DNA of 64,000 bases from Alphaproteobacteria bacterium (GCA_020638555.1 JACKII010000003.1:112610-176609); one strand, 5' to 3'; positions 3,387 to 63,035 are shown, counted from the stretch's first letter. Notes: generated by a model from the sequence alone, not told the origin. Made by a program: numbers and translations.

Positions 3387-3404
3387 GGAGGTGCGGGTTT
3401 TCGT

Positions 3405-45655: not shown

Positions 45656-47056
45656 ATGCGGCGCAACGCCTGCTGCAAGCTCGGTCTGATCGGGGCCGGT
45701 TTTGCCCTTGCTCTCGTCACCACCCCCCTTCTCGACCCACCGCCGGCGCAGGCGGCTTCCAACTCGTCCGAAACCTACCGGGCGCTGAACCTGTTCGGGG
45801 ATGTGTTCGAGCGGGTGCGCTCGGAATATGTCGAGGAAGTCTCCGACGAAAAGCTGGTCGAAGCCGCCATCAACGGCATGTTGTCCTCGCTGGACCCGCA
45901 TTCCAGCTATCTGAATCCGAAGAATTTCAAGGATATGCAGGTTCAGACCAAGGGCGAGTTCGGCGGGCTCGGCATCGAGGTCACCATGGAGAACGGCCTG
46001 GTCAAGGTGGTCTCCCCCATCGACGACACGCCCGCCTACCGCGCGGGCATCCAGTCCGGCGACCTGGTCACCCATCTGGATGGCGAGCCGGTGCTGGGCC
46101 TGACCCTGGAGCAGGCCGTCGAGAAAATGCGCGGCAAGCCGGACACCGACATCAAGCTGACCGTGCGGCGCGGCGACCAACCGCCCTTCGAAGTCTCCAT
46201 CACCCGCGCCGTGATCAAGATCCAGTCCGTGCGCTCCCGGCTGGAAGGCGATATCGGCTATGTGCGCATCACCAGCTTCAGCCAGCAGACCGAAAGCGGC
46301 CTGACGAAGGCGGTCAAGAAGCTGGAGAAAGAGGCGCCGAACGGCAAGCTGATCGGCCTGGTGCTGGACCTGCGCAACAATCCGGGCGGCCTGCTCGACC
46401 AGGCCATAGCCGTCTCCGACGCCTTCCTGGAGCGGGGTGAGATCGTCTCGACCCGCGGCCGCGACAAGGACAACGCGCAGCGCTTCAACGCCAGCCCGGG
46501 CGACATCACCGACAACCTGCCCATGGTCGTGCTGATCAACGGCGGCTCGGCCTCCGCCTCGGAGATTGTCGCCGGCGCGTTGCAGGATCACCGTCGCGCG
46601 CTGCTCATGGGCACCACCTCCTTCGGCAAGGGCTCGGTCCAGACCATCCAGCCCATCCCCGGCCATGGCGCGATCCGCCTGACCACCGCACGCTATTACA
46701 CCCCGTCCGGCCGCTCGATCCAGGCGACCGGCATCGTACCGGATATCGAGGTCCAGCCGGCCAAGGTCGAGGCCATCGACGTCTCCGCCCGCCGGCGCGA
46801 GGCCGACCTGCCGGGCGCGCTCGCCAATCCCAACGGCACGTCGGACGGCACGCCGGCGAAGAAGGACGCGGCCCCCGCGGCCAAGCCGAAGCCGGACAGC
46901 ATGGACAAGGACGAAGGCGCACCCGAGGCACCGGAGGACAAGACCGGCGACAAGGCAGAGGCCAAGCCGGCAACGGCGCCGGTCGACTACCAGTTGTCGC
47001 GGGCCATCGACCTGCTGCGCGGCCTCGCCCTCTTCAACAGCCGCAAGGACGGGTAA
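45656..47056 (+). CDS. ctpA: carboxy-terminal processing protease (S41)
   Basis: ATG 45656 within track ORF 45647..47056 (TTG); PDZ plus S41 catalytic domain (GGSASASEIVAGAL, TTSFGKGSVQ). Confidence 0.9.
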   Translation: MRRNACCKLGLIGAGFALALVTTPLLDPPPAQAASNSSETYRALNLFGDVFERVRSEYVEEVSDEKLVEAAINGMLSSLDPHSSYLNPKNFKDMQVQTKGEFGGLGIEVTMENGLVKVVSPIDDTPAYRAGIQSGDLVTHLDGEPVLGLTLEQAVEKMRGKPDTDIKLTVRRGDQPPFEVSITRAVIKIQSVRSRLEGDIGYVRITSFSQQTESGLTKAVKKLEKEAPNGKLIGLVLDLRNNPGGLLDQAIAVSDAFLERGEIVSTRGRDKDNAQRFNASPGDITDNLPMVVLINGGSASASEIVAGALQDHRRALLMGTTSFGKGSVQTIQPIPGHGAIRLTTARYYTPSGRSIQATGIVPDIEVQPAKVEAIDVSARRREADLPGALANPNGTSDGTPAKKDAAPAAKPKPDSMDKDEGAPEAPEDKTGDKAEAKPATAPVDYQLSRAIDLLRGLALFNSRKDG

Positions 47057-47550
47057 TGGCCGCGGCGCGCAACCCGGAGGGCATGCCTTACCGTCCCTGC
47101 GTCGGCATCGCGCTGGCCAATGCCGAGGGACTGCTGTTCCTCGGCCGGCGGGTCGGCACCGAGGACAGTTGGCAGATGCCGCAGGGCGGCATCGACCCCG
47201 GCGAGTCCCCCCGGGCGGCCGCCATGCGCGAACTGCGCGAGGAAACCGGCATTGCCCAGGCCGATCTGGTGTTCGAAAGTGCGCACTGGTACCGCTATGA
47301 CCTGCCGCCTGCGGTGGCCGGTCGGGCGTTGCGCGGCCGCTATCGCGGCCAGGAGCAACGCTGGTTCCTGCTGCGCTTCACCGGCCGGGAACGCGAGATC
47401 GACCTGCGCACCCATCACCAGGAATTCTCCGCCTGGCGCTGGGCCGAGCCGGACGAGGTGCTGGCCTGCATCGTCGATTTCAAGCGCCCGGTCTACGAAC
47501 AGGTGCTGGCCGAGTTCGCCTCGCACCTGGCTGCCCTCCGCAGCCGCTGA
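47056..47550 (+). CDS. rppH: RNA pyrophosphohydrolase (NUDIX)
   Basis: Nudix box GGIDPGESPRAAAMRELREETGI. Confidence 0.9.
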   Translation: MAAARNPEGMPYRPCVGIALANAEGLLFLGRRVGTEDSWQMPQGGIDPGESPRAAAMRELREETGIAQADLVFESAHWYRYDLPPAVAGRALRGRYRGQEQRWFLLRFTGREREIDLRTHHQEFSAWRWAEPDEVLACIVDFKRPVYEQVLAEFASHLAALRSR

Positions 47551-47586
47551 CCGCCCCTTTCCGGACCCAAGCCGAAGCGCCCCGCG

Positions 47587-48783
47587 ATGACCGACTCCGC
47601 CCCCCTCCCCCTTGCCGGCATCCGTGTGCTGGAATTCTGCCACACCATCATGGGGCCGACCGCAGGCGTGATTCTGGCCGACCTCGGCGCCGACGTCATC
47701 AAGGTCGAGCCGGCGCCCGCCGGCGACAAGACCCGCCGCCTGCCGGGGTTCGCCGCCGGGTTCTTCGTCAGTTTCAACCGCAACAAGCGCGGCATCGCCC
47801 TCGACCTGAAGAGCGAGGCCGGCCGGGCCGTCGCCCACAGGCTGATCGGCCAGGCCGACATGCTGTTCGAGAATTACGGCCCCGGCACGATGGAGCGGCT
47901 CGGCTGCGGCTATGACCAGGTCAAGCACCTGAACGAGCGCCTGATCTATGGCGCGCTGAAGGGCTTTCTCTCCGGCCCCTACGAGCACCGGCCGGCGCTG
48001 GACGAGGTGGTGCAGTTCATGGGCGGCCTCGCCTACATGACCGGCCCGCCCGGCCGCCCGCTGCGCGCCGGCGCCAGCGTGATCGACATGATGGGCGGCA
48101 CCATGGCCGTGGTCGCGGCCCTCGCCGCGCTGGAGGAGCGCAAGCGCACCGGCAAGGGCCAGTATCTGAAAAGCGCGCTGTTCGAGAGCACGGCCTGGCT
48201 CATGACCCAGCACATGGCCGGCCAGGCGATCACCGGCCGACCGGTGCCGCCAATGCCGGCGCGCGAGGGCGCCTGGGCGGTCTACGAACCGTTCGAGACC
48301 GCCGACGGCGACCAGATTTTCATCGGCCTCACCTCCGACAATCACTGGCGCCGCTTCTGCGAGGAATTCGGCCGCCACGACCTGCTGGCCGACGCGCGCT
48401 ATGCCTCGAACGAGGCCCGCGTCGCCGAGCGCCCGACCCTGCTGCCGCTGGTGGCCGATTTGGTGAAGCGGCATACCACTGCCGAGATCGTCGCCATTGC
48501 CGAGCGCATCGGCATCCCGTTCGCCCCGGTCGCCACCGCTGCCGACCTGTTCGACGATCCGCAACTGGCCGCGGCCGGCGGTGGCCTGCTTCCGATCCAA
48601 CTGCCGAACGGCGACTGGACCAAACTGCCCCGCCTGCCGATCGAGATGGGCGATCACGATCTGGGCCTGCACTGCCAGGCGCCGCAAGTCGGCGAACACA
48701 CGGCCGAGGTGATGCGGGAAGCCGGCTACAGCGAGGCCGAGATCGCCGCGCTGGCCGAGCAGAAGGCCGTGGTGCTGGGGTAA
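47587..48783 (+). CDS. CaiB/BaiF family III CoA-transferase
   Basis: 398 aa; family III CoA-transferase N-terminus (LAGIRVLEFCHTIMGPTAGVILADLGADVIKVE) and catalytic Asp region. Confidence 0.85.
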   Translation: MTDSAPLPLAGIRVLEFCHTIMGPTAGVILADLGADVIKVEPAPAGDKTRRLPGFAAGFFVSFNRNKRGIALDLKSEAGRAVAHRLIGQADMLFENYGPGTMERLGCGYDQVKHLNERLIYGALKGFLSGPYEHRPALDEVVQFMGGLAYMTGPPGRPLRAGASVIDMMGGTMAVVAALAALEERKRTGKGQYLKSALFESTAWLMTQHMAGQAITGRPVPPMPAREGAWAVYEPFETADGDQIFIGLTSDNHWRRFCEEFGRHDLLADARYASNEARVAERPTLLPLVADLVKRHTTAEIVAIAERIGIPFAPVATAADLFDDPQLAAAGGGLLPIQLPNGDWTKLPRLPIEMGDHDLGLHCQAPQVGEHTAEVMREAGYSEAEIAALAEQKAVVLG

Positions 48784-48879
48784 GGCGGCGGCCGACACCG
48801 GCCCCGGACGGCGGCTCCGTCCGCTTCGGGGAACGCCAATGGCCCGCGGGGGATCGCCGACCGAGACGCCTCCGAAACC

Positions 48880-48980
48880 CGCAATTCCGTCATGGCGAGG
48901 CGCGGAGCGACGAAGCCATCCAGGGGGTTTTCAACATGTCAAACCCTGGATTGCTTCGCCTTCGGCTCGCAATGACGGTT
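48880..48980. repeat. palindromic intergenic repeat, family B copy 2
   Basis: ccgtcatggcgagg...gcgacgaagccatccaggg...ccctggattgcttcgcc...ctcgcaatgacgg; imperfect palindrome between convergent genes, related to 3405-3515. Confidence 0.55.
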
Positions 48981-49120
48981 TCCGGAGGTATCCAGGAGAT
49001 TGCCTCCCCGTGGCGGGCGGTTGCGAGAAGCGCTGAGGCATGGCCTACCGCCTGCGCGGGAGAGGGGAGGGAGTGGAGACCATCCGGATTCGCCGCCACG
49101 CCTCCCCAAAAAAACGGCCT

Positions 49121-50710
49121 TCAAACGAAATCCCATTCCGGCCTTGTCATGCCGACAAAGGTCTCGCCGATCCCGCCGGGGGTGTTTCGGGCCAGCAGGT
49201 CGCGCAGCGAGACCGTGTTCTGGATCGCATCCCACCCCGGCGCGCTGAACGTCTCCGGCTTGAACACGTGCTCCGAGAGCAGCGGGTTGGTCAGCGCCTG
49301 GCTGAAGGCGTCGATGGCGACGAAGCGCAGAATCAGCGGCGGCAGCGAGGAATTGACCGTCCGGTCCTCCGCGAACAGGCCGACGAAAAACTCGATCCGG
49401 TCGACACTGCCATAGGCCCGGCGCAGCATCTCGGCCGCTTGCGGATCGCTGGTCACGTCCTCGAAACGCTGCGGCCGGTCGAGGCCCACATAGGCGCGGT
49501 AGTCGCTGTAACTGGCCAGCTGGCAGGCCCGCCCCTGGCGGATCGAGCGTTCCTCCACATGCAACAGCCGCTTGGTGGTGTTGAACAGGCCGAGCCGCGT
49601 CGCCGGCGTGGCGCTGATATCCCGGAACGCCGCCAGCAGGCCGCCGCGCAACAGCACGCCGTGGTCGAGGAAGGTGCGCGCCACCGGCACCGGCTCGCCA
49701 CCGCCCCAGGGGATCGCGTCCGGGATCAGGGCGTGCCAGCGATAGAGCAGGCTGAACTCGGTCGTGATCCAGTTCGGCTTGTTCCAGGCCGCCCGCCAGG
49801 CCGCGCGCGGGTCGGCGCGGATGGAAAAATTCTTCGGCGAGATATGGTTGATGTATTCCTCGACCACGATCTTGATGAAGAGGACGATCACCACATTGCG
49901 CGCCGTCTCGAACACGCGGGTATCGTCCCAATCCGGGTGGCGCTGCGCGATCTCGCCGGCCAGCCGGTTGTGCTCGCGCAGGAACAGCGTGTTCAGCATC
50001 GCCACCTGCGGCACCGAGTTGGCGCGGTCGCCGCCGAACGCGAACAGGGTGGCGCGCTTCTCTGCCGCCAGGCCGTCACCGTCGCCCAGCACCGGGTCCA
50101 GCACCGCGAATTGCGGGTCGAGTTCGCCGTCGCGGTAGAGAAACGGCGCATACTCCTCGCCGTCGATCGTCTGCGACTTCAGGCGGCCGCGTTCGCCCGG
50201 CGTCTCGCTGTTCTGCCGCAGCGCCGCGGTTTGCGCCGGGGTGCGGCCATAGAGCGGGCAGAGGTCGATCTGGTGGTTGGAGGTGGTGCGCCGGAACAAC
50301 TCGTCGTCCGAAAGACCCGACAAGCCGATACGGTCGGCCAGCGGCTCGGTCAGGGTGCGGATGAAGCCGTCGGTCAGGTATTGCGCGAAGGCCGGGAACA
50401 GACAGGTGGACTTGCCGTCCGGGTCCGCCGGCCGATCCTCCGGCCGGGCGAACAGCCGGGTCAGCGTCTCGACCGGCGGCAGGTCGGCGACCGGCTTGGG
50501 CGGCAGGTGGCGGCCGCTCCAACTCCGGTCCGACAGCGCGGTCCAACTGGTATAGGGCTGGGCCGTGCTCCAGGGATGCGGCCGGGTGCGGGCCCGCCCC
50601 ACCGCCCGGTTGATCAGGATGCGGTTGGCGTGCACGGCCAGGACGGGCACGGCTTCGACCACGTCGAACAGGCGACGCTCCAACCAACGCAGAGCGGATG
50701 AACTGGCCAT
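49121..50710 (-). CDS. animal-type heme peroxidase family protein, cyclooxygenase/alpha-dioxygenase-like fatty acid oxygenase
   Basis: ATG 50710 (MASSSALRWL) with AAGGA RBS, within track ORF 49121..50836; stretches resembling COX/PIOX: FAQYLTDGFIRT (distal His region), TLFLREHNRLAGEIAQRHPDWDDTRVFETARNVVIVLFIKIVVEEYINHIS (compare COX TIWLREHNRVCDLL...IKIVIEEYVQ), LLYRWHALIPD (Tyr/proximal His). Confidence 0.8.
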   Translation of the reverse strand: MASSSALRWLERRLFDVVEAVPVLAVHANRILINRAVGRARTRPHPWSTAQPYTSWTALSDRSWSGRHLPPKPVADLPPVETLTRLFARPEDRPADPDGKSTCLFPAFAQYLTDGFIRTLTEPLADRIGLSGLSDDELFRRTTSNHQIDLCPLYGRTPAQTAALRQNSETPGERGRLKSQTIDGEEYAPFLYRDGELDPQFAVLDPVLGDGDGLAAEKRATLFAFGGDRANSVPQVAMLNTLFLREHNRLAGEIAQRHPDWDDTRVFETARNVVIVLFIKIVVEEYINHISPKNFSIRADPRAAWRAAWNKPNWITTEFSLLYRWHALIPDAIPWGGGEPVPVARTFLDHGVLLRGGLLAAFRDISATPATRLGLFNTTKRLLHVEERSIRQGRACQLASYSDYRAYVGLDRPQRFEDVTSDPQAAEMLRRAYGSVDRIEFFVGLFAEDRTVNSSLPPLILRFVAIDAFSQALTNPLLSEHVFKPETFSAPGWDAIQNTVSLRDLLARNTPGGIGETFVGMTRPEWDFV

Positions 50711-50896
50711 GGTGGGATCGTCCTTGCTGTCGCCGCGTGTCATTGCCGTCCTGGTAACACGATTCAACCGCAACGGCTGTGATTTCGGCCACTTCCCACA
50801 CCCGGCACAGGGCACCGGCATTGTTCCAAAGACCAATGCGTGTAGACTTTTCCGCCAACGCCATCCGTATCTTCCCCATCAAGGAACCGCCTCCCC

Positions 50897-52087
50897 ATGT
50901 CCTCCCCTTCCGCGCCGCCGCTCGACGGCTTGCTGGTGCTCGACTTCACCCGGGTGATTGCCGGCCCCTATCTGACCCAGATGCTGGGCGATCTGGGCGC
51001 CGAGATTGTCAAGATCGAGGACCCGCGCGGCGGCGACGACTTCCGCCACTACCGGCCCGCCGGCTGGCAGGGCGATGCCCCCTATTTCCTGGGCCTGAAC
51101 CGCAACAAGAAAAGCGTGCTGGTCGACCTCGCCAGCGAGGCCGGGCGCCGGGCCTGCCGCGAACTGGCGGCCAAGGCCGATATCCTGGTGGAGAATTTCC
51201 GCCCCGACGTCATGGCGAAATACGGCCTCGCCTATGACGATCTCAAGGAGCTGAACCCGCGCCTGGTCTACTGTTCCATTTCCGGCTACGGCCATTCCTC
51301 CCCCTTCCGCCTGGTGGCCGGCTACGACCCGATTGCCCAGGCGGAAACCGGCCTGATGTACCTGACCGGGCCGGAGGAGATCGAGCCGCAAAAGGCCGGC
51401 GGCTCCGTCGCGGACACCTTCACCAGCCTGCATGCGGGCATGGGGTTGATGGCGGCGCTGGAGGCGCGCCACCGCACCGGCCGGGGCCAGCACGTGGACG
51501 TGTCGCTGTTCGATTCCATGTTCGCCGCCACCGGCTATGCCGCCATGTATCCGCTGATGCTGGGCGAGGACATGCCGCGCCTCGGCAACGGTTCGCTGGT
51601 GCTGACCCCGCTCGGCACCTATGACTGCGCCGACGGCCAGATCATGATCGTGGTCGGCAACGACCGGCAATACGCCCGCTTCTGCGAGGCGCTGGAGCGG
51701 CCGGACATGGCGGACGACCCGCGCTATGCCAGCATCGCCTCGCGCCTGGAACACCGCGCGGCGCTGGAGGCCGAAGTGGTGGCGGCCCTCAAGACCCGCC
51801 CGCGCGCCGAATGGGTCGACCGGCTGCGCGCCGCCGGCGTGCCCGCCGGCGCGGTGCGTACGCCGAAAGAGGCCGTCGCCTCACCGGAGGCCACCGGCCG
51901 CGACATGCTGCAACCGGCCCGCTATGCGGAGACGACCCAGGACGTGGTCTGGTCGCCGCTCCGCCTCTCCGACACGCCGCCGCGCAAGCCGGGCCGGGTG
52001 CCGCTGCACGGCGAGCACACCGACGAGGTGCTGGCCGAGATGCTGGGCTACTCCGCCACCCAGATCGCCGCAGTGAAAGGCGGCTAG
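50897..52087 (+). CDS. CaiB/BaiF family III CoA-transferase (paralog)
   Basis: 396 aa; LDGLLVLDFTRVIAGPYLTQMLGDLGAEIVKIE N-terminus. Confidence 0.85.
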   Translation: MSSPSAPPLDGLLVLDFTRVIAGPYLTQMLGDLGAEIVKIEDPRGGDDFRHYRPAGWQGDAPYFLGLNRNKKSVLVDLASEAGRRACRELAAKADILVENFRPDVMAKYGLAYDDLKELNPRLVYCSISGYGHSSPFRLVAGYDPIAQAETGLMYLTGPEEIEPQKAGGSVADTFTSLHAGMGLMAALEARHRTGRGQHVDVSLFDSMFAATGYAAMYPLMLGEDMPRLGNGSLVLTPLGTYDCADGQIMIVVGNDRQYARFCEALERPDMADDPRYASIASRLEHRAALEAEVVAALKTRPRAEWVDRLRAAGVPAGAVRTPKEAVASPEATGRDMLQPARYAETTQDVVWSPLRLSDTPPRKPGRVPLHGEHTDEVLAEMLGYSATQIAAVKGG

Positions 52088-52248
52088 GCAAGGAGGAAAG
52101 GGCCGGCACCGCCCCTCCTGCCCCCGGTCGCGCCACGCCCGTTCATGCTTGGCGCAACCGGGGGGCCGTGTGCGCTGTTGTCAGACGGGAACCATTGGCG
52201 ATACACTCGGTCCATGGTTGAATTGTGCCACGGCGCGGGGGCGAGCGA

Positions 52249-52773
52249 ATGGCAGATGCGGGCATTCCGGGGCAAGAGCCGAACCAACAAGCAACCGAAG
52301 AACCTGTCCAGCGGCATCCACTTTGGCGCTGGCTTCGCGGTTTCACCGAGCATGTGCTGCTGACGCCCTGGTCGCTGGTTCTGGTGATCTGGGCGTCTTG
52401 CCTGGGGAGCGGCATCGGCACTGTGGATGCGGATTGGTCCACCGCCGCCACCCTCATCCAGGGTCGCCATGTGTTCACCAACCTGGACTGGGATTGGCCT
52501 TCAGCTACGAGCGCTTTTTGGCGCCATACCGGCGGATTCCTCATCCTGTTCATCGGCTTTACGGCGATTAGCGCAGTATTTTATTGCGCATTTCTAAGAA
52601 TTACAAAGAACTCGCAGCGTCCGATTTGGATCATAATCCAACTCTCCTGGCTATGGGTCTTTACCAATATTCGGGTTCGCTGCGATTTTGACCTGCACGG
52701 AGACGCAAAGGCTTGGGAGAAGGCCGCAAACAACCCTGCCGATGATGCGACCCTAGAGCGGTTTCGCTTCTGA
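52249..52773 (+). CDS. hypothetical membrane protein
   Basis: ATG 52249 within track ORF 52225..52773; about 4 hydrophobic helices; 3' half visibly lower in GC than surroundings. Confidence 0.4.
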   Translation: MADAGIPGQEPNQQATEEPVQRHPLWRWLRGFTEHVLLTPWSLVLVIWASCLGSGIGTVDADWSTAATLIQGRHVFTNLDWDWPSATSAFWRHTGGFLILFIGFTAISAVFYCAFLRITKNSQRPIWIIIQLSWLWVFTNIRVRCDFDLHGDAKAWEKAANNPADDATLERFRF

Positions 52774-52814
52774 AAGAGTCGTTGGGGGATTCCCGTGGGA
52801 CCGAATTTCTGATT

Positions 52815-53835
52815 CAGAGTAAGGGCTGGTGAGGGAGGCCAGCCGCGATGGCGACAGCTCTTTCCGTTGATCTTCGTTCCCGTGTGATTGCTGCCGTTGA
52901 TGACGGCATGAGCCGTCGTCGGGCCGCGACGCGGTTTGGTGTCAGCTACTCTTCTGCGATCCGCTGGGTTCGGCAGGCGCGGGAGACGGGCAATCTCGCG
53001 CCAAAGCCGCAAGGCGGTGCACGGCGGGAGAGCATCATCGACCGGCATGCGGCTCTGGTCATGGGCTGGATCGATGCCGAGCCGGACCTGACGCTCCCGG
53101 AGATCGCGATGCGGTTGGACGATGCGGTCGGCTACCGCCCGCCACCGAGTGTGGTGCACGCTTTCTTCAAGCGCCACGGCGTGACGCGCAAAAAAAGACG
53201 GCGCATGCGGCCGAGCAAGACCGGCCGGACGTAGCGCAGCGACGGCACGCCTGGTTCGACGCCCAGCCGGACCTCGATCCGGAGCGTCTGGTCTTCATCG
53301 ACGAGAGTGGAACCTCGACCAAGATGGCGCGGATGTATGGCCGTGCGCGCAAGGGCGAGCGCTGCCGGGCGCCGGTTCCGCACGGGCATTGGAAGACAAC
53401 GACGTTCGTCGGCGGCCTGACGCTTGCGGGCGTGGTCGCGCCGATGACGCTCGACGGTGCCATGAGCGGAGCGGCTTTCCTCGCCTATGTCAGCCAAGTC
53501 CTGGCGCCGACGCTGCGCCGCGGCGATGTCGTGGTGATGGACAACCTGCCGGCCCACAAATCCATCGCCGTCCGAGAGACCATCGAGGCTGCCGGCGCCG
53601 TCCTGCTGTTCCTTCCGCCCTACAGCCCCGACTTCAATCCGATCGAGCTTGCCTTTGCCAAGATCAAGGCGCTGCTCAAAAAGGCCGCCGCCCGCACACT
53701 TCCCGCACTCTGGGACGCCATCCGCGACGCCATCGACGCCGTCACTCCGAACGACGCCCGCAGCTTCTTCACCGCATGCGGTTACGAACCAGAATGAAAC
53801 GATTCCGCTCTAGCCCGTTTCTACTGGTTTCCGCT
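52815..53835 (+). mobile_element. IS630-family insertion sequence (boundaries approximate)
   Basis: Contains orfA/orfB transposase with A7 slippery site; weak imperfect terminal inverted repeats (CAGAGTAAGGGCT ... AGCCCGTTTCTACTG); target TA duplication not clearly seen. Confidence 0.65.
52848..53797 (+). CDS. IS630-family transposase OrfAB (programmed -1 frameshift at A7, 53190-53196)
   Basis: OrfA (track 52848..53234) has HTH N-terminus; -1 reading of the A7 run joins to the DDE domain (track ORF 53324..53797: [22 protein letters not shown]). Confidence 0.75.
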
Positions 53836-53938
53836 TTATGGCGGCATCGCCATTTGGCTGGGAGGGCTGGTCACCGTCAGCGCGCTCTGCGTCGATGGAA
53901 TTTTCAACATCCGCTCGCTGCCCATCCACGAAACCAGC

Positions 53939-55120
53939 TTGCGACTGGTAACGACGATTGTCATTTACACCACGATATTATTGGTGATTTCCCTTTTATT
54001 CATAGCGAATTTGCGCGCCACACTCTGCAAAGATAAGGAAAAAAACGACGAAAAAGAAAAATATAAGAAATTAAGATTGACAATTATCCGCAATATGTGG
54101 TCAACCGATAAAATAAACACCTCCTTCTTGTTAAGATATCTTTATGATATACTTAATACCAATAAAACTAAACAAGATATAAATTTTAAATACCTTATTT
54201 TATCTTCAATATTAATCAATATAGTAAAAATTATTCTCTTCACAATGACCATTGAACTGGTTTTCCAGACCTTCGCGATCGACCGCCTGTACGAACTGAC
54301 TTACGGCCTGAACCCCAACGAAAATTTCCGTGGCTTGGTGCTGATGCTGGTGATCATTGTTGTGTTCACCAACAACATGCCGTTGCTGTTTTCGCTGGCC
54401 TGGACCGTGAATGTTGTCGCGCCCATTCTCATCAATCTCGGCTACGACCCCGTTCTCTCCGTCAGCGCCGCAGCCCTGTTTTGCGGCGCCAATTTCGCGA
54501 CACCCACCGGTTCCGAAGTGGTCGCGATGTTGGATCGACGACTGGACTCAAAAACAGTCCGGAAAATCATTGCCGACTTCTACAATGAAATCAAAAATCA
54601 TCTCGGCATAGGATCGTTTGGGTTAATAAAATCGACCCTCGGATTTTTTGCCTTCTTGATATGGCATTATTTTTGCTATTGGAAACTGCATACGCGCTAT
54701 GTCTGGACATATTTTGCGCTGATCCTGATCCCGTTTGCGATGCCCCCCCGGGATTGGGCCCCCTTGGCCTGGGATGGACGGTTCGGGAACATATGGCCAT
54801 TTCACCTGCAAGTCTTGCTTGGCATGGTGTTGATTCTGATCGCCATGAAATACTTCCGCACGGGCCCCTTCTTTCCCGGCCGGCCCGTCTGGCAGATGGT
54901 GCGGCTTTGCCTGATGCTCTCGGGCTCGGCGTTACTCTTGGACCAAACCCACGTGTTCCGACTCAGCCAGCATTTCTTGCTGACCGCCGGCGTCGTGTTG
55001 GCGGTTTTGCCCTTCCTGGTCTGGTGGTTTCTCAGCAAAACGACCGATTACGGTCGTCAGAACACCAAACGAACGGCGCCCGCCGCCCCACCCAAGCCCT
55101 TGCCAACGCCGCCGATATGA
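53939..55120 (+). CDS. hypothetical polytopic membrane protein, compositionally chimeric (possible ion-transporter-superfamily remnant)
   Basis: TTG 53939 (first ATG at codon 53); frame is open back to the IS630 transposase stop codon. A very AT-rich segment of about 250 nt (KDKEKNDEKEKYKK...) is embedded in otherwise GC-rich coding sequence. It has multiple TM helices and a motif (GANFATPTGSEV) reminiscent of IT-superfamily hairpin loops. Confidence 0.5.
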   Translation: MRLVTTIVIYTTILLVISLLFIANLRATLCKDKEKNDEKEKYKKLRLTIIRNMWSTDKINTSFLLRYLYDILNTNKTKQDINFKYLILSSILINIVKIILFTMTIELVFQTFAIDRLYELTYGLNPNENFRGLVLMLVIIVVFTNNMPLLFSLAWTVNVVAPILINLGYDPVLSVSAAALFCGANFATPTGSEVVAMLDRRLDSKTVRKIIADFYNEIKNHLGIGSFGLIKSTLGFFAFLIWHYFCYWKLHTRYVWTYFALILIPFAMPPRDWAPLAWDGRFGNIWPFHLQVLLGMVLILIAMKYFRTGPFFPGRPVWQMVRLCLMLSGSALLLDQTHVFRLSQHFLLTAGVVLAVLPFLVWWFLSKTTDYGRQNTKRTAPAAPPKPLPTPPI

Positions 55121-55503
55121 CGGCATGGTACGCGCCCCTTTGGTCCGGATCGAGCCCCATGCCGCCGAAACACAACCCGCTGAAACTGAACGCCTTGCAG
55201 CTGAAGACTCTGACCGTGTTGCAGCAGCTGGCGCGCTTCCCGCAATACAGCAACCGCGACGCCGAAACGGGCGAGGCGGTGATCATGCGCTTCCCGCATG
55301 CCCATGGCGATCATTTCCACTGCGGCGATGCGGTCGTGCTGAGCCGCGATGCCACCGGCCTGCAGAACGAAAAGGTCTGGCGCGCGCTGGAGCGCAAGGG
55401 GCTGGCCCGCCCCGTCTCCGCCACCGCGCTCGCGCTGTCGGCGGCAGGCGAGGCCTACGACACCGGCCTTTCCGACCGGATTCTGCACCGCGCCGACCAC
55501 TGA
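55117..55503 (+). CDS. hypothetical His-rich small protein
   Basis: ATG 55117 overlapping previous stop (ATGA), in frame with track ORF 54661..55503; HAHGDHFHCGD motif suggests metal binding. Confidence 0.5.
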   Translation: MTAWYAPLWSGSSPMPPKHNPLKLNALQLKTLTVLQQLARFPQYSNRDAETGEAVIMRFPHAHGDHFHCGDAVVLSRDATGLQNEKVWRALERKGLARPVSATALALSAAGEAYDTGLSDRILHRADH

Positions 55504-55713
55504 TCCCGACGATCCAGCGTCCGGACCGGCGCGCCCCGGCCTGAAGACCGCAGGCGCCGGAGACGCCAATGTTTCCCGGCCGCGCCGGAGGCGTAGGGCC
55601 GGGACCGGTGTCCTCCTTCGAACACCGTCCCTGCCCGTGTTCGCAGGCCCCGGCCGGCCCCGGATCGGCGCTCCGCACCCTCCGGGGAACAAGAGCGGTG
55701 TGATCGGCCCGTC

Positions 55714-55803
55714 GGCGTCTTCCCCGGCGGGGATCAGCCCGCCGGCGTCGGCCCAGGCGGGGGTCAGCCCGCCACCGTCTTCCCCGGCGGGGATCAGCCC
55801 GCC
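55714..55803 (-). terminator. array of three GC-rich hairpins at typA 3' end
   Basis: Three tandem units each with 6-bp stem ggcggg-(g/a)(a/g)tcag-cccgcc; typA stop codon lies in the last unit. Confidence 0.35.
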
Positions 55804-57611
55804 ACTTTGCGCGCGGCTTTCTTGCGCTCGTGGATGTCCAGATAGCGCTTGCGCAGGCGCACGCTCACCGGCGTCACCTCGACCAGTTCGTCGTCGTCGA
55901 TATAGGCCAGCGCCTTTTCCAGCGTCATCTTGATGGGCGGCGTCAGGTCCAGCGCGTCGTCCTTGCCGGCGGCGCGGAAATTGGTGAGCTGTTTTGCCTT
56001 CAGCGGGTTCACGTCCAGGTCCTGGCCCTTGGCGTGCTCGCCCAGGATCATGCCCTGGTAGACCGGCTCGCCGGGCGAGACGAACAGGAAGCCGCGCTCC
56101 TCCAGATTGTAAAGCGCATAGGCCACCGCCTTGCCCTGCTCCAGGCTGATGAGCACGCCCGTCCGCCGCGTCTCGATCGGCCCCTTGTAGGGCGCGTAGT
56201 GGCTGAACAGCCGGTTCATGACGCCGGTGCCGCGGGTATCGGTCAGGAACTCGCCGTGATAGCCGATCAGGCCGCGCGACGGCGCGTGGAACACCAGCCG
56301 CGTCTTGCCGGCGCCGGCCGGCCGCATTTCCTGCATCTCGCCACGACGCTGGCCCAGTTTTTCCACCACCGAGCCGGCATAGTCCTCGTCGACGTCGATG
56401 ACGACTTCCTCGATCGGCTCCTCGCGCTGGCCCTGTTCGTTGGCGCGGAACAGCACCCGCGGACGGCTGACCGAAAGCTCGAAGCCCTCGCGGCGCATGG
56501 TTTCGATCAGCACCGCCAGTTGCAACTCGCCCCGGCCGGAGACTTCGAACGCATCCTTTTCCTCGGTCTCGCGCACCTGGATCGCGACATTGCCTTCGGC
56601 CTCGCGCAGCAGGCGGTCGCGGATCAGGCGGCTGGTGACCTTGTCGCCTTCCAGGCCCGCCAGCGGCGAATCGTTGATCGAGAAGGTCATGGCCAGGGTC
56701 GAGGGGTCGATGGGCTGGGCCGGCAGCGGTGCCTCGACTTCCGGGGTGGCGATGGTGTCGGCCACCGTCGCCTCCGACAGGCCGGCAATGGTGACGATGT
56801 CGCCGGCCTGCGCTTCCTCCAGCGGCTCGCGCGCCAGGCCGCGGAACGCCAGGAGCTTGGAAATGCGGCCAACCTCGACCACGCTGCCGTCGCGGCGCAG
56901 CGCCCGCACCGGCATGTTCGCCCGCGCCTTGCCGCTCTGGATGCGCCCGGTCAGCAGCCGGCCCAGATAGGGGTCGCGCTCCACCGTGGTCGCCAGCATG
57001 GCGAACGGCGCGTCGGCATCGACGGTGGGCGGCGGCACATGGGCGACGATGGTGTCGAACAGCGCATCCATATTGCCCGGCCGCTCGTCCGGATCGGCCG
57101 CGGCCCAGCCCTGCTTGGCGCTGGAGAACAGGGTCGGGAAGTCCAGTTGCGCCTCGTTGGCGTCGAGCGCGGCGAACAGGTCGAAGGTTTCGTCCTGCAC
57201 CTCGAAGGCGCGCTGTTCCGGCTTGTCGACCTTGTTGATCAGCACGATCGGGTTCAGACCCAGGCGCAGCGCCTTGCCGACCACGAACTTGGTCTGCGGC
57301 ATCGGCCCTTCGGCGGCGTCCACCAGCACGACGACGCCGTCGACCATGCTGAGAATGCGCTCCACCTCGCCACCGAAATCGGCGTGGCCGGGGGTGTCGA
57401 CGATGTTGATGCGCGTGTTCTTCCAGACGACGCTGGTGCATTTCGCCAGGATGGTGATGCCGCGCTCGCGCTCCTGGTCGTTCGAGTCCATGGCGCGCTC
57501 GGCCACTTTCTGGTGGGCGCGGAAGGTGCCGGACTGGTGCAGCAGGCAATCGACCAGGGTCGTCTTGCCATGGTCGACGTGCGCGATGATCGCGATGTTG
57601 CGGATATCCAT
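55794..57611 (-). CDS. typA: translational GTPase TypA/BipA
   Basis: ATG 57611 ([19 protein letters not shown]) within track ORF 55794..57890; EF-G-like G domain motifs. Confidence 0.95.
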
Positions 57612-57959: not shown

Positions 57960-59558
57960 TCAGCCCTCCTCGAACAATTCCCAGAGGCGGTTGCGCTGCA
58001 ATTTGCCGGTGGCGGTGAGCGGCAGCCGGTCGGCAGCGGTGAAACACCAGCGCCGCGGCAGCTTGAATGGCGCCAGGCGCTGGCGGCAATAGGCCTGCAA
58101 TGCCTCGCCGTCGACCGTCGCGCCGGGCTCCAGCAGCACCACGGCGGCCACGGTCTCGTCCAGCTTCGCATCCCTCAGGCCGGTGACGAAGCACGAGGCG
58201 ACGGCGGGATGGGCCAGCAGCACCTCCTCCACCTCCGCCGGCGAGACGTTGATGCCGCCCGTCTTGATCAACTCCTTCAGCCGGCCGCGAAACCGCACCC
58301 AGCCCTGGTCGTCCAACAGGCCCAGGTCGCCGGTGCGGAACCAGCCGTCCGCGCTCAGGCTGGCCGCGGTCAGGTCCGGCGCCTGCCAGTAGCCCGGCGT
58401 GAAGCGGCCGCCGACCTGGATTTCGCCGATGGCGCCCGGCCCCAGCACCGCGCCGCTATCGCCGTCGACGATTCGGATTGCCACCCCGTCCAGCGGCGCG
58501 CCGGAGGCGTGCAGGCGCCGGGCCAGCGGTGCCTTGCAGTCCGCCACCGCCGAGTTGCCATAGCCCTCGGTCAGGCCGTAGACATTGCAGACCTCGGTCG
58601 CTCCCAGATCGACAATGCGCTGGATCTGCTCCGGCGTGCCGATGGTCGCCCCGGTGCGCAGGGACGAGAGATCGCGAGCCCGCCGGTCCGGGTGCGTTTC
58701 CAGGGCGATGGCCATGTTCGGCATGCCATAGAACACGCTGCACCGCTCCCGTTCGATCAGGCGCAACGCCTCGCCCGGCTCGAAATGGTGTTGCAGCACC
58801 AGCGTGCCACCATGGCTCATCACCGCAAACAGGGCGTTGACGCAGCCGAACGACCAGAACAGCGAGACGCCGAACCACAGCCGGTCCGCCGGAGCCAGGT
58901 GCATGCGCTCGCCGATGGACCACATATTGTCGACCACGCCGCCGTGCAGCAGCGGCACGCCTTTTGGCGCCGCGGTCGAGCCGGACGTGTAGAGAATGCA
59001 GCACACATCCTCCGGCTCGGCCCGATCCCAGGCATCGGCCCGCGGCGCGGCCGCACGCAACTCGGCATAGGGGCGGGTGTCGCGAAAGCCCTGCCCGTCC
59101 AGCACCACCACCTCGCGCAGGCCCGGCACCTGACCCTCGGCTCGCAGCGCCTGGATTTCGCAGGCGAAACTGCGGCCGCGGAAGTCCGGCTCCACCACCA
59201 GCACCGCGGCGCCGGCGTGCGCCAACTGCCAGGCGATCTCCGCCGGCGTCAGCCAGGTGTTGAGTGCCACGGTGATCGCGCCCAGCCCCTGGGCCGCGAA
59301 ATAGGTCGCCACCCACTCCGCCCGGTTGCCGGCCAGGATCGCCACCCGGTCGCCATGGCCGACGCCCAGCGCCGCCAGCCCCGCCGCGACGGCCCGCGCC
59401 TCCCGCAGCAGGTCGGCATAGGTCCAGCGGATCGCGCCGTCGACGACGGCCTCGTGGTCCGGCCGGGTCGCCGCGAGCCCGTCCAGCAGGCGCGGGCCGG
59501 TGCGCGGCACGGGCGCGCGGTAGGGCTCGCTCACGGGCGAGACGGCACGCAGGGTCAT
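57960..59558 (-). CDS. AMP-dependent acyl-CoA synthetase/ligase
   Basis: ATG 59558 (MTLRAVSPVS) within track ORF 57960..59816; AMP-binding motifs (YTSGSTAAPKG, GYGLTE, TGDLG, GRLKELIKTGG). Confidence 0.85.
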   Translation of the reverse strand: MTLRAVSPVSEPYRAPVPRTGPRLLDGLAATRPDHEAVVDGAIRWTYADLLREARAVAAGLAALGVGHGDRVAILAGNRAEWVATYFAAQGLGAITVALNTWLTPAEIAWQLAHAGAAVLVVEPDFRGRSFACEIQALRAEGQVPGLREVVVLDGQGFRDTRPYAELRAAAPRADAWDRAEPEDVCCILYTSGSTAAPKGVPLLHGGVVDNMWSIGERMHLAPADRLWFGVSLFWSFGCVNALFAVMSHGGTLVLQHHFEPGEALRLIERERCSVFYGMPNMAIALETHPDRRARDLSSLRTGATIGTPEQIQRIVDLGATEVCNVYGLTEGYGNSAVADCKAPLARRLHASGAPLDGVAIRIVDGDSGAVLGPGAIGEIQVGGRFTPGYWQAPDLTAASLSADGWFRTGDLGLLDDQGWVRFRGRLKELIKTGGINVSPAEVEEVLLAHPAVASCFVTGLRDAKLDETVAAVVLLEPGATVDGEALQAYCRQRLAPFKLPRRWCFTAADRLPLTATGKLQRNRLWELFEEG

Positions 59559-60529
59559 GCGCCGCGGTTCATCCAGTTTTCCTGCAATGGCGTTCCCGGC
59601 TGGGCCTGGCCGGTGGAGCGGCGGCGCAGCACGCCGCGGAAGCGCTCGTCCAGCCCCGCCACCGGCTCGGCCGACGCGCGATAGACCGGCGTGTCGCCGA
59701 TGATCGTCACCCGCTCCGCGACCCGCGTGTGCGGCCAGTAGTCGGAGACCGCATAATGCTGACAGGCGCGATTGTCCCAGAACGCGATGGAATTCGCCTT
59801 CCAGCGGAAGCGGCACTGGTATTCGGGGTACAGCGCCTGGGCGTAGAGGATTTCCAGCAGCGTCGCGCTTTCCTCGGCACTCACGCCCAGAATTTCCCGG
59901 GTGAAGGCGCGGTTGACATAGATCGCCTGCTCGCCGGTGTCGGGATGGGTGCGGATCACGGGGTGTTCCGGGTGCGGGTAGAGCCGGTCGAACTCGGCCA
60001 ATTCCGCCTCGGAGGCGCCCTTCTCTTTCAGCCGGGCGCGGAAGGGCGCGAAGTCGTGGCGGGCATAGAGGCCCGTCACCCGCTCGCGAATCGCTTCCGG
60101 CAGGCCGCGATAGGCGGCGCCCATGTCGGCAAACACCGTATCGCCGCCCACCGGCGGCGCCTCGCGCGAGCGCAGCACCGAGCCGAGCGAGGGTTGCAGA
60201 CGCCAGGTCACGTCCGAATGCCAGATATTCTCGGTGCCCGGATGCTCGGCATTGTGATGCAGCCGCAGCATCTCGGGATGGTCGCGGTCGGAGGCGGCGA
60301 ACGGGTGGACTTCCAGCTCGCCGAACGCGCCGGCGAAGGCCAGATGCTGTTCCTTGGTCAGGTCCTGGTCGCGGAAGAACAACACCTTCCAGTCCAGCAG
60401 CGCCTGGTAAAGCCCGTCGCGGGCGGCGGCGGACAGCGGCTCGCGCAGATCGATGCCGCCGATCTCCGCCCCGATACCGGGAGAAACGGGCTCCAGCGTG
60501 AAGGCGGCGGCGGTGGCGACGTGGTTCAT
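59555..60529 (-). CDS. TauD/TfdA-family Fe(II)/2-oxoglutarate-dependent dioxygenase
   Basis: ATG 60529 (MNHVATAAAFTLEPV) within track ORF 59555..60586; HxD...H facial triad context (WHSDVTW, later H); stop overlaps ligase start (ATGA). Confidence 0.85.
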   Translation of the reverse strand: MNHVATAAAFTLEPVSPGIGAEIGGIDLREPLSAAARDGLYQALLDWKVLFFRDQDLTKEQHLAFAGAFGELEVHPFAASDRDHPEMLRLHHNAEHPGTENIWHSDVTWRLQPSLGSVLRSREAPPVGGDTVFADMGAAYRGLPEAIRERVTGLYARHDFAPFRARLKEKGASEAELAEFDRLYPHPEHPVIRTHPDTGEQAIYVNRAFTREILGVSAEESATLLEILYAQALYPEYQCRFRWKANSIAFWDNRACQHYAVSDYWPHTRVAERVTIIGDTPVYRASAEPVAGLDERFRGVLRRRSTGQAQPGTPLQENWMNRGA

Positions 60530-60805
60530 CGGAGGCGTTCCTTCGTTATGGCTTTGGCGGGCAGTCTGGCATGGCGCCCGTCGCACCGCCAGAGCGGGTT
60601 CTTTTCCCGCCGGCTCACCAGCCCATTTTCCCTGTCCTCGCGGAAGCGGGGACCCATGCCGGGGAGACCAATACAGGGTCCGTATCCTGTGAGAAGCTCT
60701 CAGGCATGGGCTCCCGCTTACGCGGGAGATGGGTCAGGAGAGGGAGTCCACCAGTGCCGAAAGCACCGCCAGACCAAACCCTCCGCCCCGCGGCCCCGGC
60801 CCGGA

Positions 60806-61753
60806 TCAGGTGCCGGCGTACAACCGCTCCCGCAGGAAGCCGCAGATGCGGTCGTATTCGGCGCGGGCGGCCGCGCCCAGGAAACGGGCGCGCATGAAGC
60901 CGTGCACCATCCCCTTGGCCTCGCGATAGCTGACGTCGACGCCCGCCTGGGCCAGCCGCGCCGCGAACTCCCGCCCATCGTCGCGGATCGGGTCGATCTG
61001 GGCCGAATGCACCCAGAACGGCGGCAGACCGGAGAAATCCCTGGCCATGATCGGCCGGGCATAGGGGTCGTCCGTGTCCCGGTTGCCGGGCAGATACATG
61101 TCGCGATAGGCGCGGGTGCCCGCCGTGGTCAGGCCCGTGCCGGCGGAGAATTCCCGGTAGCTGGGATAATCCTGGTCCAGCCCCGTGCCCGGATAAATCA
61201 ACGCCGCGCAGGCGATGGCCGGGCCGCCCCGGTCGCGGGCCTTCAGGCACAGCGCCGCGCTGAGATTGCCGCCGGCGCTGTCGCCGGCCACGCCGATCCG
61301 GGCCGGGTCCAGGCCCAGCCGCCCGGCCTGCTCGTGCAGCCAGACAAGGCAGTTCCAGGCATCGTTGAACGCGGCCGGATAAGGATGTTCCGGCGCCAGG
61401 CGATAGTCGACGGACACCACCACCGCCCCGGCTTGCTCGGCAAAGCCCCAGGCCACGGAATCGGAGCTGTCGAGGTCGCCCTTCATGAAGCCGCCGCCAT
61501 GCAGGTAGAGCACCGCCGGCGCCCCGCTCTCCGATGCCGCCGCCGGGCGGTAAAGCCGGACCGCCACGGCGTGCTCCGGCGCCGGCACCGTCTCGTCCCA
61601 CACGCGCATCGTCGCCGGCGGCGGCCGGTTCAGGGTGTTCGTATAGTGGGTCCAGGCCTTGCGCTGCTCCGCAATCGTATCCCCGAACTGCCCGGCGGGC
61701 GCACGCGCCGCCGCCAGGCACTCCATATCCGGGTGAACCGCGGGTTTGGTCAT
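60806..61753 (-). CDS. alpha/beta hydrolase (esterase/lipase, HGGG type)
   Basis: 315 aa; oxyanion HGGGF, nucleophile elbow GDSAGG. Confidence 0.8.
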   Translation of the reverse strand: MTKPAVHPDMECLAAARAPAGQFGDTIAEQRKAWTHYTNTLNRPPPATMRVWDETVPAPEHAVAVRLYRPAAASESGAPAVLYLHGGGFMKGDLDSSDSVAWGFAEQAGAVVVSVDYRLAPEHPYPAAFNDAWNCLVWLHEQAGRLGLDPARIGVAGDSAGGNLSAALCLKARDRGGPAIACAALIYPGTGLDQDYPSYREFSAGTGLTTAGTRAYRDMYLPGNRDTDDPYARPIMARDFSGLPPFWVHSAQIDPIRDDGREFAARLAQAGVDVSYREAKGMVHGFMRARFLGAAARAEYDRICGFLRERLYAGT

Positions 61754-61868
61754 GGCCGAACCTCCTTCGCCAGCAAACGGCCTAGCCTAGGCTCGGTCAT
61801 CTGTACTAAAGAAGCAAGTTCAGTGCTGCCCCGCGGCACGCCCGCAGCCCCTGACCGAGACCGCTCCC

Positions 61869-63035
61869 ATGGATTTCCAGTTTACCGAACAGCAGCAAAG
61901 CATCCGCGCCGCCATCGAAAAGATCTGCGGCGACTATCCGCTGGACTACTGGTCCGAGTGCGACGACCAGCACCGCTTCCCGGAGGATTTCGTGCAGGCG
62001 CTGGCCAATGACGGCTGGCTCGGCATCGCCATGCCGGAGGAATACGGCGGCGCCGGCCTCGGCATTTCGGATGCCTGCGTCATGATGGAGACCATTGCCG
62101 GCTCCGGCGCCGGCATGTCCGGCGCCAGCGCGGTGCACATCAACGTGTTCGGCCCGCACCCGATCGTCGTCCACGGCACCGACGAGCAGAAGCAGCGCTG
62201 GCTCGTGCCGATGATCCAGGGCAAGGAAAAGTGCTGCTTCGGCGTGACCGAGCCCGATGCCGGCCTCAACACCGCCGCCATCAAGACCCGGGCGGAGCGC
62301 GACGGCCAGAACTACAAGATCTACGGCCAGAAAATGTGGACCTCCACGGCGCAGGAGGCGAACAAGGTGCTGCTGCTGGCCCGCACCACGCCGCGCGAGC
62401 AGGTCTCGAAGCCGTTCGAGGGCATCAGCCTGTTCTACACCGACCTCGACCGCAAATATGTCGAGATCCGCGAGATCCCGAAAATGGGCCGCATGGCGGT
62501 GGACACCAATTTCGTTTTCTACGACGGCCTGCCGGTGCCGAAGGAAGACCTGATCGGCGAGGAAGGCCGCGGCTTCTATTACCTGCTGGACGGCATCAAC
62601 CCCGAACGCTGCCTGGTGGCGTCGGAGGCCATCGGCATCGGCCAGTTTTCGCTGGACCGTGCCGCGGAATACGCCCGCGAACGGGTCGTGTTCGGCCGGC
62701 CCATCGGCCAGAACCAGGGCATTCAGCACCCGCTGGCGGAAAGCTGGGCCAAGCTCACTGCCGCCCGCCTGCTGACCTACAAGGCCGCCTGGCTCTATGA
62801 CAACGGCCTGCCCTGCGGGTCGGAGGCGAACGGCGCCAAATATCTCTGCGCCGAAGTCGGCTTCGAGGCCTGCGAGCGCGCCATGCTCACCCACGGCGGC
62901 ATGGGCTATGCCAAGGAATATCACGTGGAGCGCATGCTGCGCGAGGTGATGATCTCGCGCCTGGCGCCGGTCGGCCAGCAACTGGCCCTCTCCTACATCG
63001 CCGAACGCCAGCTCGGCCTGCCGAAGAGCTATTGA
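61869..63035 (+). CDS. acyl-CoA dehydrogenase
   Basis: 388 aa; three-domain ACAD architecture (CFGVTEPDAGLN, YKIYGQKMWTS). Confidence 0.9.
   Translation: MDFQFTEQQQSIRAAIEKICGDYPLDYWSECDDQHRFPEDFVQALANDGWLGIAMPEEYGGAGLGISDACVMMETIAGSGAGMSGASAVHINVFGPHPIVVHGTDEQKQRWLVPMIQGKEKCCFGVTEPDAGLNTAAIKTRAERDGQNYKIYGQKMWTSTAQEANKVLLLARTTPREQVSKPFEGISLFYTDLDRKYVEIREIPKMGRMAVDTNFVFYDGLPVPKEDLIGEEGRGFYYLLDGINPERCLVASEAIGIGQFSLDRAAEYARERVVFGRPIGQNQGIQHPLAESWAKLTAARLLTYKAAWLYDNGLPCGSEANGAKYLCAEVGFEACERAMLTHGGMGYAKEYHVERMLREVMISRLAPVGQQLALSYIAERQLGLPKSY

Follow-up and report, generated by a model that had tools for sequence, protein, structure and literature searches.

The DNA analysed here (the window) is a 64,000-nt stretch of Alphaproteobacteria bacterium (GCA_020638555.1 JACKII010000003.1:112610-176609), and our analysis concerned its region 47587-52087, in which a gene for a cyclooxygenase (COX)-like haem protein lies between two genes for family-III (CaiB/BaiF) CoA-transferases, called CaiB1 and CaiB2 below. 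An earlier note on this DNA had described a 529-aa minus-strand haem protein between two CaiB-type genes and had proposed that the three together form an oxylipin pathway. We found all three open reading frames (ORFs) intact at the same coordinates, and their Pfam families (PF03098 and PF02515) agree with that description. Taken as a whole, our results make it likely that the haem protein is a stand-alone haem b enzyme that oxygenates fatty acids and belongs, with the linoleate 10S-dioxygenase (10S-DOX) of Nostoc punctiforme, to a bacterial branch having an acidic residue on the distal side of the haem, and that the CoA-transferase genes are an older pair into which the haem gene was inserted and are not its partners.

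The haem protein and its active-site residues

The COX-like protein scored 155.4 bits with PF03098 (An_peroxidase), whose cut-off is 25 (E 2.7e-45; positions 152-521 of the 530 in the profile), and none of the NCBIfam models matched it. Its top sequence matches in the PDB were COX-2 and COX-1 (E 7e-45, query residues 40-512). A Foldseek search with an AlphaFold2 model of the protein (pLDDT 83.3, pTM 0.87) gave TM-scores of 0.81-0.82 to COX at 25-27% identity, about 0.65 to myeloperoxidase (MPO) and other peroxidases, with lactoperoxidase (LPO) also in the comparison, and 0.60-0.63 to alpha-dioxygenases at 17-19% identity. The protein has the alpha-helical haem peroxidase fold and falls, as a bacterial representative, within the COX branch of the peroxidase-cyclooxygenase superfamily. 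Of the two affinities suggested before, COX and alpha-dioxygenase, only the former has stood: the sequence match to alpha-dioxygenases is partial (E ~1e-17 to 7e-17) and covers residues 391-511 only, i.e. the C-terminal quarter. The plant and bacterial alpha-dioxygenases (PIOX) share with the window protein the superfamily and the logic of a Tyr-radical dioxygenase, but their match is much weaker than that of COX in both sequence and fold (TM 0.82 for COX), and we rejected this assignment in favour of the COX/10S-DOX side.

The COX stretches quoted in the earlier note all align with COX-2 as it had claimed: LREHNRL pairs with LREHNRV, IKIVVEEYINHIS with IKIVIEDYVQHLS, LLYRWHALIPD with LYHWHPLLPD, and FAQYLTDGF with FAQHFTHQF, and the motifs LREHNR, IKIV-EEY and LY-WH are held in common. 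COX residues are given below in ovine COX-1 numbering. We aligned the window protein with its homologs from 80 loci, collected from species genomes, and ten residues are invariant in these 81 sequences: Gln110 (COX Gln203), Asp114 (the distal His207), Arg229 (Val291), Tyr286 (Tyr348), Tyr323 (the radical Tyr385), Trp325 (Trp387), His326 (the proximal ligand His388), Val464 (Gly526), Ala468 (Ser530) and Gln471 (Gly533). The radical Tyr and the proximal His, on which the original assignment depended, are thus both present as Tyr323 and His326. The position of COX Tyr355 is Lys293 in the window protein and variable across the 81 sequences. The protein therefore keeps the equivalents of the radical Tyr, the proximal His, Tyr348, Trp387 and Gln203 of COX but departs from it in His207 to Asp, Val291 to Arg, Ser530 to Ala, Gly526 to Val, Gly533 to Gln and the unconserved Tyr355 equivalent. 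Among the 150 best representatives of clusters at 50% identity, the radical Tyr and the proximal His are retained throughout, and every sequence that covers the distal position has Asp or Glu there, none of them His. This systematic exchange of the COX distal His for an acidic residue did not figure in the earlier note.

The N-terminal ~40 residues, which precede the COX-aligned part, are modelled as two helices (residues 3-40, AlphaFold2). The Pfam scan of the protein found no EGF domain, a domain that COX has, and the alignment opens at residue 91 of the COX chain and query residue 40. Where COX has a four-helix membrane-binding domain, only two N-terminal helices are predicted in the window protein; they probably correspond to part of that domain and would tether the protein to the membrane in a monotopic manner. 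Unlike COX, the protein is bacterial and presumably cytoplasmic, judging from the missing EGF domain and from the lack of a hydrophobic, signal-like segment at the N-terminus.

The sole bacterial relative for which we found a characterisation, the linoleate 10S-DOX of Nostoc punctiforme (UniProt B2J5P4, 542 aa), was described by Brash et al. (2014), as summarised in a 2026 JBC review (PMC13049297). According to this review, three N-terminal helices of 10S-DOX align with the membrane-binding helices B-D of COX, F143-T-D-S-F is found where COX has F205-T-H-Q-F, the DOXs have Arg at the position of COX Val291, and 10S-DOX further has Tyr305, Tyr342, Ile483 (at Gly526), Ala487 (at Ser530) and a DAFxQA motif; its product is a simple 10S-hydroperoxide of C18 acids (PMC13049297). 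The counterparts in the window protein are L112-T-D-G-F, Arg229, Tyr286, Tyr323, Val464, Ala468 and DAFSQA. Compared at the motif level only, the 10S-DOX-type motifs Y..I(T/S)P, FxxxY and the terminal ...R.(I/V)..DAFxQA are all present in its substrate site, as Y286-INHIS291P, F319SLLY323 and R462-F-V464-A-I-D-A468-F-S-Q471-A, and the spacings Tyr286-Tyr323 (37) and Tyr323-Ala468 (145) are equal to those of Y305/Y342/A487 in Table 2 of PMC13049297. Because of these matching motifs and identical spacings, the window protein is placed beside 10S-DOX and not with the true prostaglandin synthases, and it appears, from this motif-level comparison, to belong to the 10S-DOX type.

Both enzymes are stand-alone bacterial COX relatives of 542 and 529 aa, with Asp in place of the distal His in a T-D-x-F helix, equivalents of Tyr348, Tyr385 and His388 at identical spacing, Ala at Ser530, a branched aliphatic residue at Gly526, the terminal DAFxQA motif and N-terminal helices (reported for 10S-DOX, two predicted in the window protein). 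On the other hand, Nostoc has FTDSF where the window protein has YLTDGF, the 64-kb window is without the gene for a catalase-related hydroperoxide lyase of the Nostoc type, and the host of the window is an alphaproteobacterium without an obvious linoleate supply. The 'bacterial cyclooxygenases' are a recognised clade, Family 4 of the superfamily, which Zamocky et al. (2015; PMC4420034) list as consisting of putative sequences only; the passages of that review that we consulted do not discuss the Asp-for-His replacement. The window protein is of the same class and has no substantive difference from this family. In the literature we found no characterised COX-like enzyme from Roseobacter or from Alphaproteobacteria.

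The CoA-transferase pair and the three-gene arrangement

CaiB1 and CaiB2 both match PF02515 (CoA_transf_3) over the full profile (1-366 of 366; E 2e-111 and 3e-124, respectively). They were introduced as paralogs, which holds in that they fall in one Pfam family, but at 35% identity they are distant ones. Neither protein reached the cut-off of an NCBIfam equivalog (carnitine, formyl/oxalate, succinate-glutarate or mesaconate; best 255 and 323 bits against 750), the best equivalog of CaiB1 being succinate-glutarate CoA-transferase with 255 bits. The nearest solved relatives of both are formyl-CoA transferase (Frc/YfdW), the succinate-hydroxymethylglutarate enzyme and YfdE, and the nearest characterised relatives use short (di)carboxylates. 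These family-III enzymes resemble CaiB1 and CaiB2 in the full-length PF02515 match and as their closest characterised relatives, but the equivalog scores are far under the cut-offs.

CaiB1 and the haem gene are convergent, and the haem gene and CaiB2 are divergent (Table 1). Since the haem gene is on the strand opposite to both CoA-transferase genes, one transcript for the three genes is impossible. Its start was set at the ATG of MASSS, and not at the TTG of a longer version of the ORF that reaches 50836, because the homologs begin at the same ATG position.

Table 1. Features of the region of interest (positions in the window)
Feature	Position	Strand	Description
CaiB1	47587-48783	+	family-III (CaiB/BaiF) CoA-transferase, 398 aa
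Palindromic repeat element	48887-48978		within the 337-bp spacer between CaiB1 and the COX-like gene
COX-like haem protein	49121-50710	-	putative fatty-acid dioxygenase, 529 aa, PF03098
Divergent spacer	50711-50896		186 bp, from the COX-like start to the CaiB2 start
CaiB2	50897-52087	+	second family-III CoA-transferase, 396 aa

Of the 80 homolog loci, 76 are free of family-III CoA-transferase genes within 10 kb. Four have one, always more than 6 kb away, 31-44% identical and neither adjacent nor orthologous, and four matches in 1.48 Mb look like the background density of so common a family. The CaiB1-haem-CaiB2 sandwich was found only in the window, in L081-L083 and in L084, so the co-occurrence of the three genes, which the earlier note had proposed to look for in other genomes, is confined to one clade of three. 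The sandwich is thus kept by the two nearest relatives of the haem protein, of which one (P0002; haem protein 82% identical) has the whole housekeeping synteny and the other (P0003; 67% identical) is on a 4.4-kb contig. In a tree without support values, the haem proteins of the sandwich carriers form one clade, which fits shared descent.

Five relatives (L085/L086, L089, L090, L091 and L092) have the same rlmH-M23-ctpA-NUDIX context; in them CaiB1 and CaiB2 directly adjoin each other, 83-168 bp apart, and the haem gene is absent. In L085 the two CaiB proteins are 92% and 86% identical to those of the window, as close as those of the haem-carrying relatives. The CaiB1 orthologs are 82-92% identical in relatives both with and without the haem gene. 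The CaiB2 orthologs are 76-87% identical and directly follow CaiB1 in the five relatives without it, and another CaiB2 ortholog (82%) lies in an unrelated neighbourhood of TRAP-transporter, TauD and HpaB genes. The earlier note had itself reasoned that the pathway would fall if the CaiB genes had unrelated neighbours elsewhere, and this is largely the case. Since the pair stands complete in five relatives without the haem gene, it is independent of that gene, and it would be so even if the haem gene had been lost repeatedly. The simplest reading of these comparisons is that CaiB1-CaiB2 is the older tandem and that, in one sub-lineage, the haem gene was added to its spacer as an accessory gene in reverse orientation. 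The flanking CoA-transferases are, as judged from gene order, apparently not partners of the haem enzyme, and the proposal that they mark an oxylipin pathway lost its ground with the opposite strands, the 76 of 80 loci without CaiB and the five haem-less tandems.

The product of the COX-like gene of L084 (1411-3036) is 68-70% identical to the proteins of the window and L081, which are 83% identical to each other, and the flanking CaiB1 and CaiB2 are 87-92% identical in the comparisons with L084 and between the window and L081 alike. Either the haem gene is changing at a far higher rate than the genes on both sides of it, or recombination has replaced it at this site. The G+C content of the window is ~69%, and the G+C at third codon positions (GC3) of the COX-like gene is 0.88, similar to the adjoining genes; neither G+C nor GC3 gives a compositional sign of recent horizontal transfer of the haem gene.

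On the 5' side of CaiB1 lie, in this order, obg, proB, proA, nadD, rsfS, rlmH, an M23 peptidase gene, ctpA and a NUDIX gene, a housekeeping set typical of Alphaproteobacteria, and CaiB1 is the end of this conserved cluster, 36 bp from the NUDIX gene. In this uncultured lineage the NUDIX-CaiB1-CaiB2 string (47056-52087 in the window) is attached to the housekeeping set, and the gaps between NUDIX and CaiB1 are 15-36 bp across the window, L085, L089, L090, L091 and L092. Such very short gaps suggest a common transcript for ctpA, NUDIX and CaiB1.

The spacer between the COX-like gene and CaiB2 is 145-186 bp across the window, L081 and L084. A block at ~50835-50860, consisting of the core GTCTACAC and CGTTGG upstream of it, is identical in the three, and its flanking bases vary. 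Lying 5' of CaiB2, this block may serve that gene as promoter or operator; in L085, a relative without the haem gene, the spacer bears no more than a loose resemblance to it. A consensus scan of the spacers for a sigma-70-like promoter or an intrinsic terminator found none, and such a scan is uninformative because the genome has 69% G+C.

The palindromic element in the other spacer is imperfect and ~90 bp long, with a folding energy of -61.6 kcal/mol (z -4.55 relative to shuffled sequences). It was seen only by folding, and an exact-seed search of the spacers for inverted repeats gave no match and missed it. Its arm motif GAAGCAATCCAGGG has four matches, two at each of two sites of the window, against 0.6 expected, and a second copy of the element lies at ~3400-3510 in another intergenic spacer of the window. 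It resembles the REP/MITE-like palindromes that are common in Alphaproteobacteria.

On the 3' side of CaiB2 there is an IS630-family transposase gene split into an ORF with a helix-turn-helix (HTH) domain (52848-53234; HTH_Tnp_IS630, E 1e-5) and a DDE_3 ORF (53324-53797; E 1.6e-28), which may reflect a programmed frameshift or decay. The synteny with the relatives stops at some point after CaiB2. Beside it is an islet of low G+C content at 52000-56000 (0.58-0.62 against ~0.69), and an AT-rich ORF of the islet (53939-55120, +) encodes an apparently multi-pass membrane protein of 393 aa without a Pfam match even at E 0.1. Past the insertion element and typA, a run of lipid/acyl-CoA-type genes occupies 57960-63035, 6-11 kb from the haem gene, and includes an AMP-binding acyl-CoA ligase-like gene (-), a TauD-family dioxygenase gene (-), an alpha/beta hydrolase gene (Abhydrolase_3, -) and an acyl-CoA dehydrogenase gene (+).

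Distribution and partners of the family

The earlier note called bacterial members of this family rare, which does not hold. We found a homolog of the haem protein in 476 of 185,579 species genomes, and 3596 of the 8000 candidate proteins that were scored reached E<=1e-10. In a library of 1.84 billion proteins, the representatives at 50% identity numbered 301 at E<=1e-30 and 1314 at E<=1e-10. The members are concentrated in Rhodobacteraceae (Roseobacter, Tateyamaria, Ruegeria and Vannielia) and occur also in Nitrosospira, Paraglaciecola, Acidobacteriota, Chloroflexia, Acidimicrobiales and Planctomycetes. The lineages are intermixed in the haem-protein tree, a tree without support values, and this intermixing indicates probable horizontal transfer within the family. 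In databases the homologs are named 'heme peroxidase' or 'peroxidase family protein', and several carry the JGI name 'prostaglandin-endoperoxide synthase 2'.

Clustering of all neighbouring ORFs in the 80 loci revealed no widely conserved neighbour, the top family being present in at most 18 of 80. The commonest neighbour families were an ABC ATPase, LuxR-type and LysR-type regulators and RND efflux proteins; they reflect lineage synteny, and we rejected a conserved operon partner across the 80 loci.

In eight of the 80 loci a catalase-related gene (~330 aa) lies within ~2 kb of the COX-like gene (L057, 7044-11560; L075, 6999-11608; L052, L059, L068, L074, L078 and L006). Its product matches the Pfam Catalase model weakly (E 0.002). 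A gene for a RoxA-like di-haem cytochrome c (461-507 aa; PF21419, E 6e-17) adjoins the catalase-related gene in at least four of the eight loci, and in the Pyrinomonadaceae (acidobacterial) locus L057 the COX-like, catalase-related and RoxA-like genes are all co-directional. This looks like a three-haem-protein oxylipin cluster common to Rhodobacteraceae and Acidobacteriota, of which we found no description.

Moreover, homologs at 46-54% identity are fused to other domains, namely catalase-related domains (P0251 and P0267), P450 (P0260 and P0330) and a patatin-phospholipase (P0263). In the six of eight loci that were compared, the separately encoded catalase-related neighbour proved to be a homolog of the fused domains, with E 1e-41 to 1e-60 in five loci and ~5e-29 in L006. 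Further long members (700-1300 aa) contain additional stretches without a Pfam match, or with AAA_22 or ALTTAQ repeats. From these fusions and neighbourhoods, the partners of the family elsewhere appear to be catalase-related, P450, patatin and RoxA-like proteins. P450, catalase-related and patatin proteins are the classical companions of dioxygenases that form fatty-acid hydroperoxides, so these fused and adjacent partners of the oxylipin type support, through guilt by association, a role as fatty-acid dioxygenase.

Proposed activity and alternative readings

The mechanism that we propose is modelled on the chemistry of COX and 10S-DOX, and the observed basis for it is the family membership, the fold, the conserved Tyr and His, an acidic residue on the distal side and the domains with which the family is partnered elsewhere. 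Haem b would be held by the proximal His326. A trace of hydroperoxide would oxidise the haem, aided by the distal trio of Gln110, Asp114 and Arg229, in which the pair Asp114-Arg229 may stand in for the missing distal His. An Asp-Arg distal pair does this job of haem activation in DyP-type peroxidases. The oxidised haem would then generate a radical on Tyr323, which would take a hydrogen from an allylic position of the bound unsaturated fatty acid, and O2 would add to give a fatty-acid hydroperoxide that is released. Candidate substrates are oleate or vaccenate, or exogenous polyunsaturated acids, and prostaglandin endoperoxides are not expected as the product.

Several points weigh against this picture. 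The substrate and product proposed for the alphaproteobacterial subfamily are argued by analogy, and Alphaproteobacteria mostly make monounsaturated fatty acids. Catalase-related (tblastn), P450 and patatin partners were not found within the 64-kb window, nor is there a RoxA-like protein in it. A regex search with the published 10S-DOX motifs gave no exact match among all the proteins collected, the 150 best representatives included, and since the Nostoc cluster thus falls outside this set, the relationship to the Nostoc enzyme may be below ~40% identity. As for the insertion, loss of the haem gene in five relatives, instead of gain in one clade, would formally account for the same pattern, and some co-regulation of the acquired haem gene with CaiB2 is possible, because the sandwich was kept despite divergence of the haem protein to 68% and the spacer holds a conserved block.

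We consider a true peroxidase, serving to detoxify H2O2 or to oxidise substrates in one-electron steps, an unlikely identity for the protein. The 'haem peroxidase' family PF03098 and the database names would fit such an enzyme, as would the retention of the ancestral distal Gln110 and Arg229, and the Asp-Arg distal pair supports peroxidase chemistry in DyP peroxidases. However, the distal His is missing clade-wide, the equivalents of the COX radical Tyr, Tyr348 and Trp387, which a plain peroxidase does not need, are invariant, the nearest structures are COX (TM 0.82) and not MPO or LPO (~0.65), and the fusion partners are enzymes of oxylipin pathways. Moreover, as judged from the descriptions of MPO and LPO motifs in PMC4420034, the protein seems to lack the Asp/Glu that would link the haem covalently as well as the Ca-binding motif. 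At the other extreme, a genuine prostaglandin endoperoxide synthase forming PGG2/PGH2-like products as animal COX does is hardly to be expected. COX-1 and COX-2 give the top matches in sequence and fold, and JGI applies the name to several homologs, but the identity to COX is just 25-27%, His207, Ser530, Gly526 and Gly533 are replaced, the Tyr355 position is a variable Lys, and no EGF domain precedes the alignment, which begins at about residue 91 of the COX chain. Furthermore, C20 polyunsaturated fatty acids, the substrates of such a synthase, are atypical of Alphaproteobacteria, and the only characterised bacterial relative yields a simple 10S-hydroperoxide of C18 acids (PMC13049297).

The three genes might also be a newly assembled module, in which an oxygenated fatty acid is activated as a CoA thioester by one or both CaiB proteins for degradation. 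In three genomes the arrangement has outlasted a divergence of the haem protein to 68-83% identity, a 145-186-bp spacer with its conserved block separates the divergently transcribed COX-like gene and CaiB2, and Rv3272 of M. tuberculosis, reportedly linked to lipid metabolism, is among the solved CaiB relatives that were matched. We regard such a module as improbable, to the same degree as a true peroxidase, because the opposite strands exclude co-transcription, the CaiB pair is unchanged in the five relatives without the haem gene, and the CaiB matches in the homolog loci are few and never adjacent or orthologous. In addition, CoA-transferases never appear among the fusion and neighbour partners of the family, which are P450, catalase-related, patatin and RoxA-like proteins. 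The closest characterised CaiB relatives take short (di)carboxylates, and it is AMP-forming ligases that normally activate long-chain fatty acids. We give slightly less credence still to a broader idea, in which the shared divergent spacer served, in this uncultured lineage, to tie the haem gene newly to CaiB2, with a CoA thioester as the form in which an oxygenated lipid or non-lipid carboxylate is handled, and in which the Asp-distal clade at large may oxygenate a class of substrates undescribed for COX relatives. Such substrates may include monounsaturated vaccenate, polyunsaturated fatty acids derived from a host or an alga, and acyl thioesters; the hosts of this clade include Roseobacter-group bacteria, nitrifiers and Acidobacteriota, which make little polyunsaturated fatty acid. 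A fatty-acid-oxygenating enzyme of the acidic-distal branch, inserted between two CoA-transferase genes that are not its partners, is the reading that we prefer to all of these.

Finally, the gene adds one uncharacterised member to the 'bacterial cyclooxygenase' clade, which has been known from sequence for more than 10 years and has its biochemical anchor in the cyanobacterial 10S-DOX. A three-gene oxylipin/CoA pathway would have been new, if true, but the comparative evidence points to an adjacency that arose as an accident of insertion. The remaining interest is at the level of the family, i.e. in the hundreds of clusters with Asp or Glu at the position of the COX distal His, in their natural substrate and in their real partners. 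These acidic-distal clusters are concentrated in marine Roseobacter-group bacteria and scattered over phyla, and the family bears on the use of COX-type radical chemistry in bacteria that have few polyunsaturated lipids.

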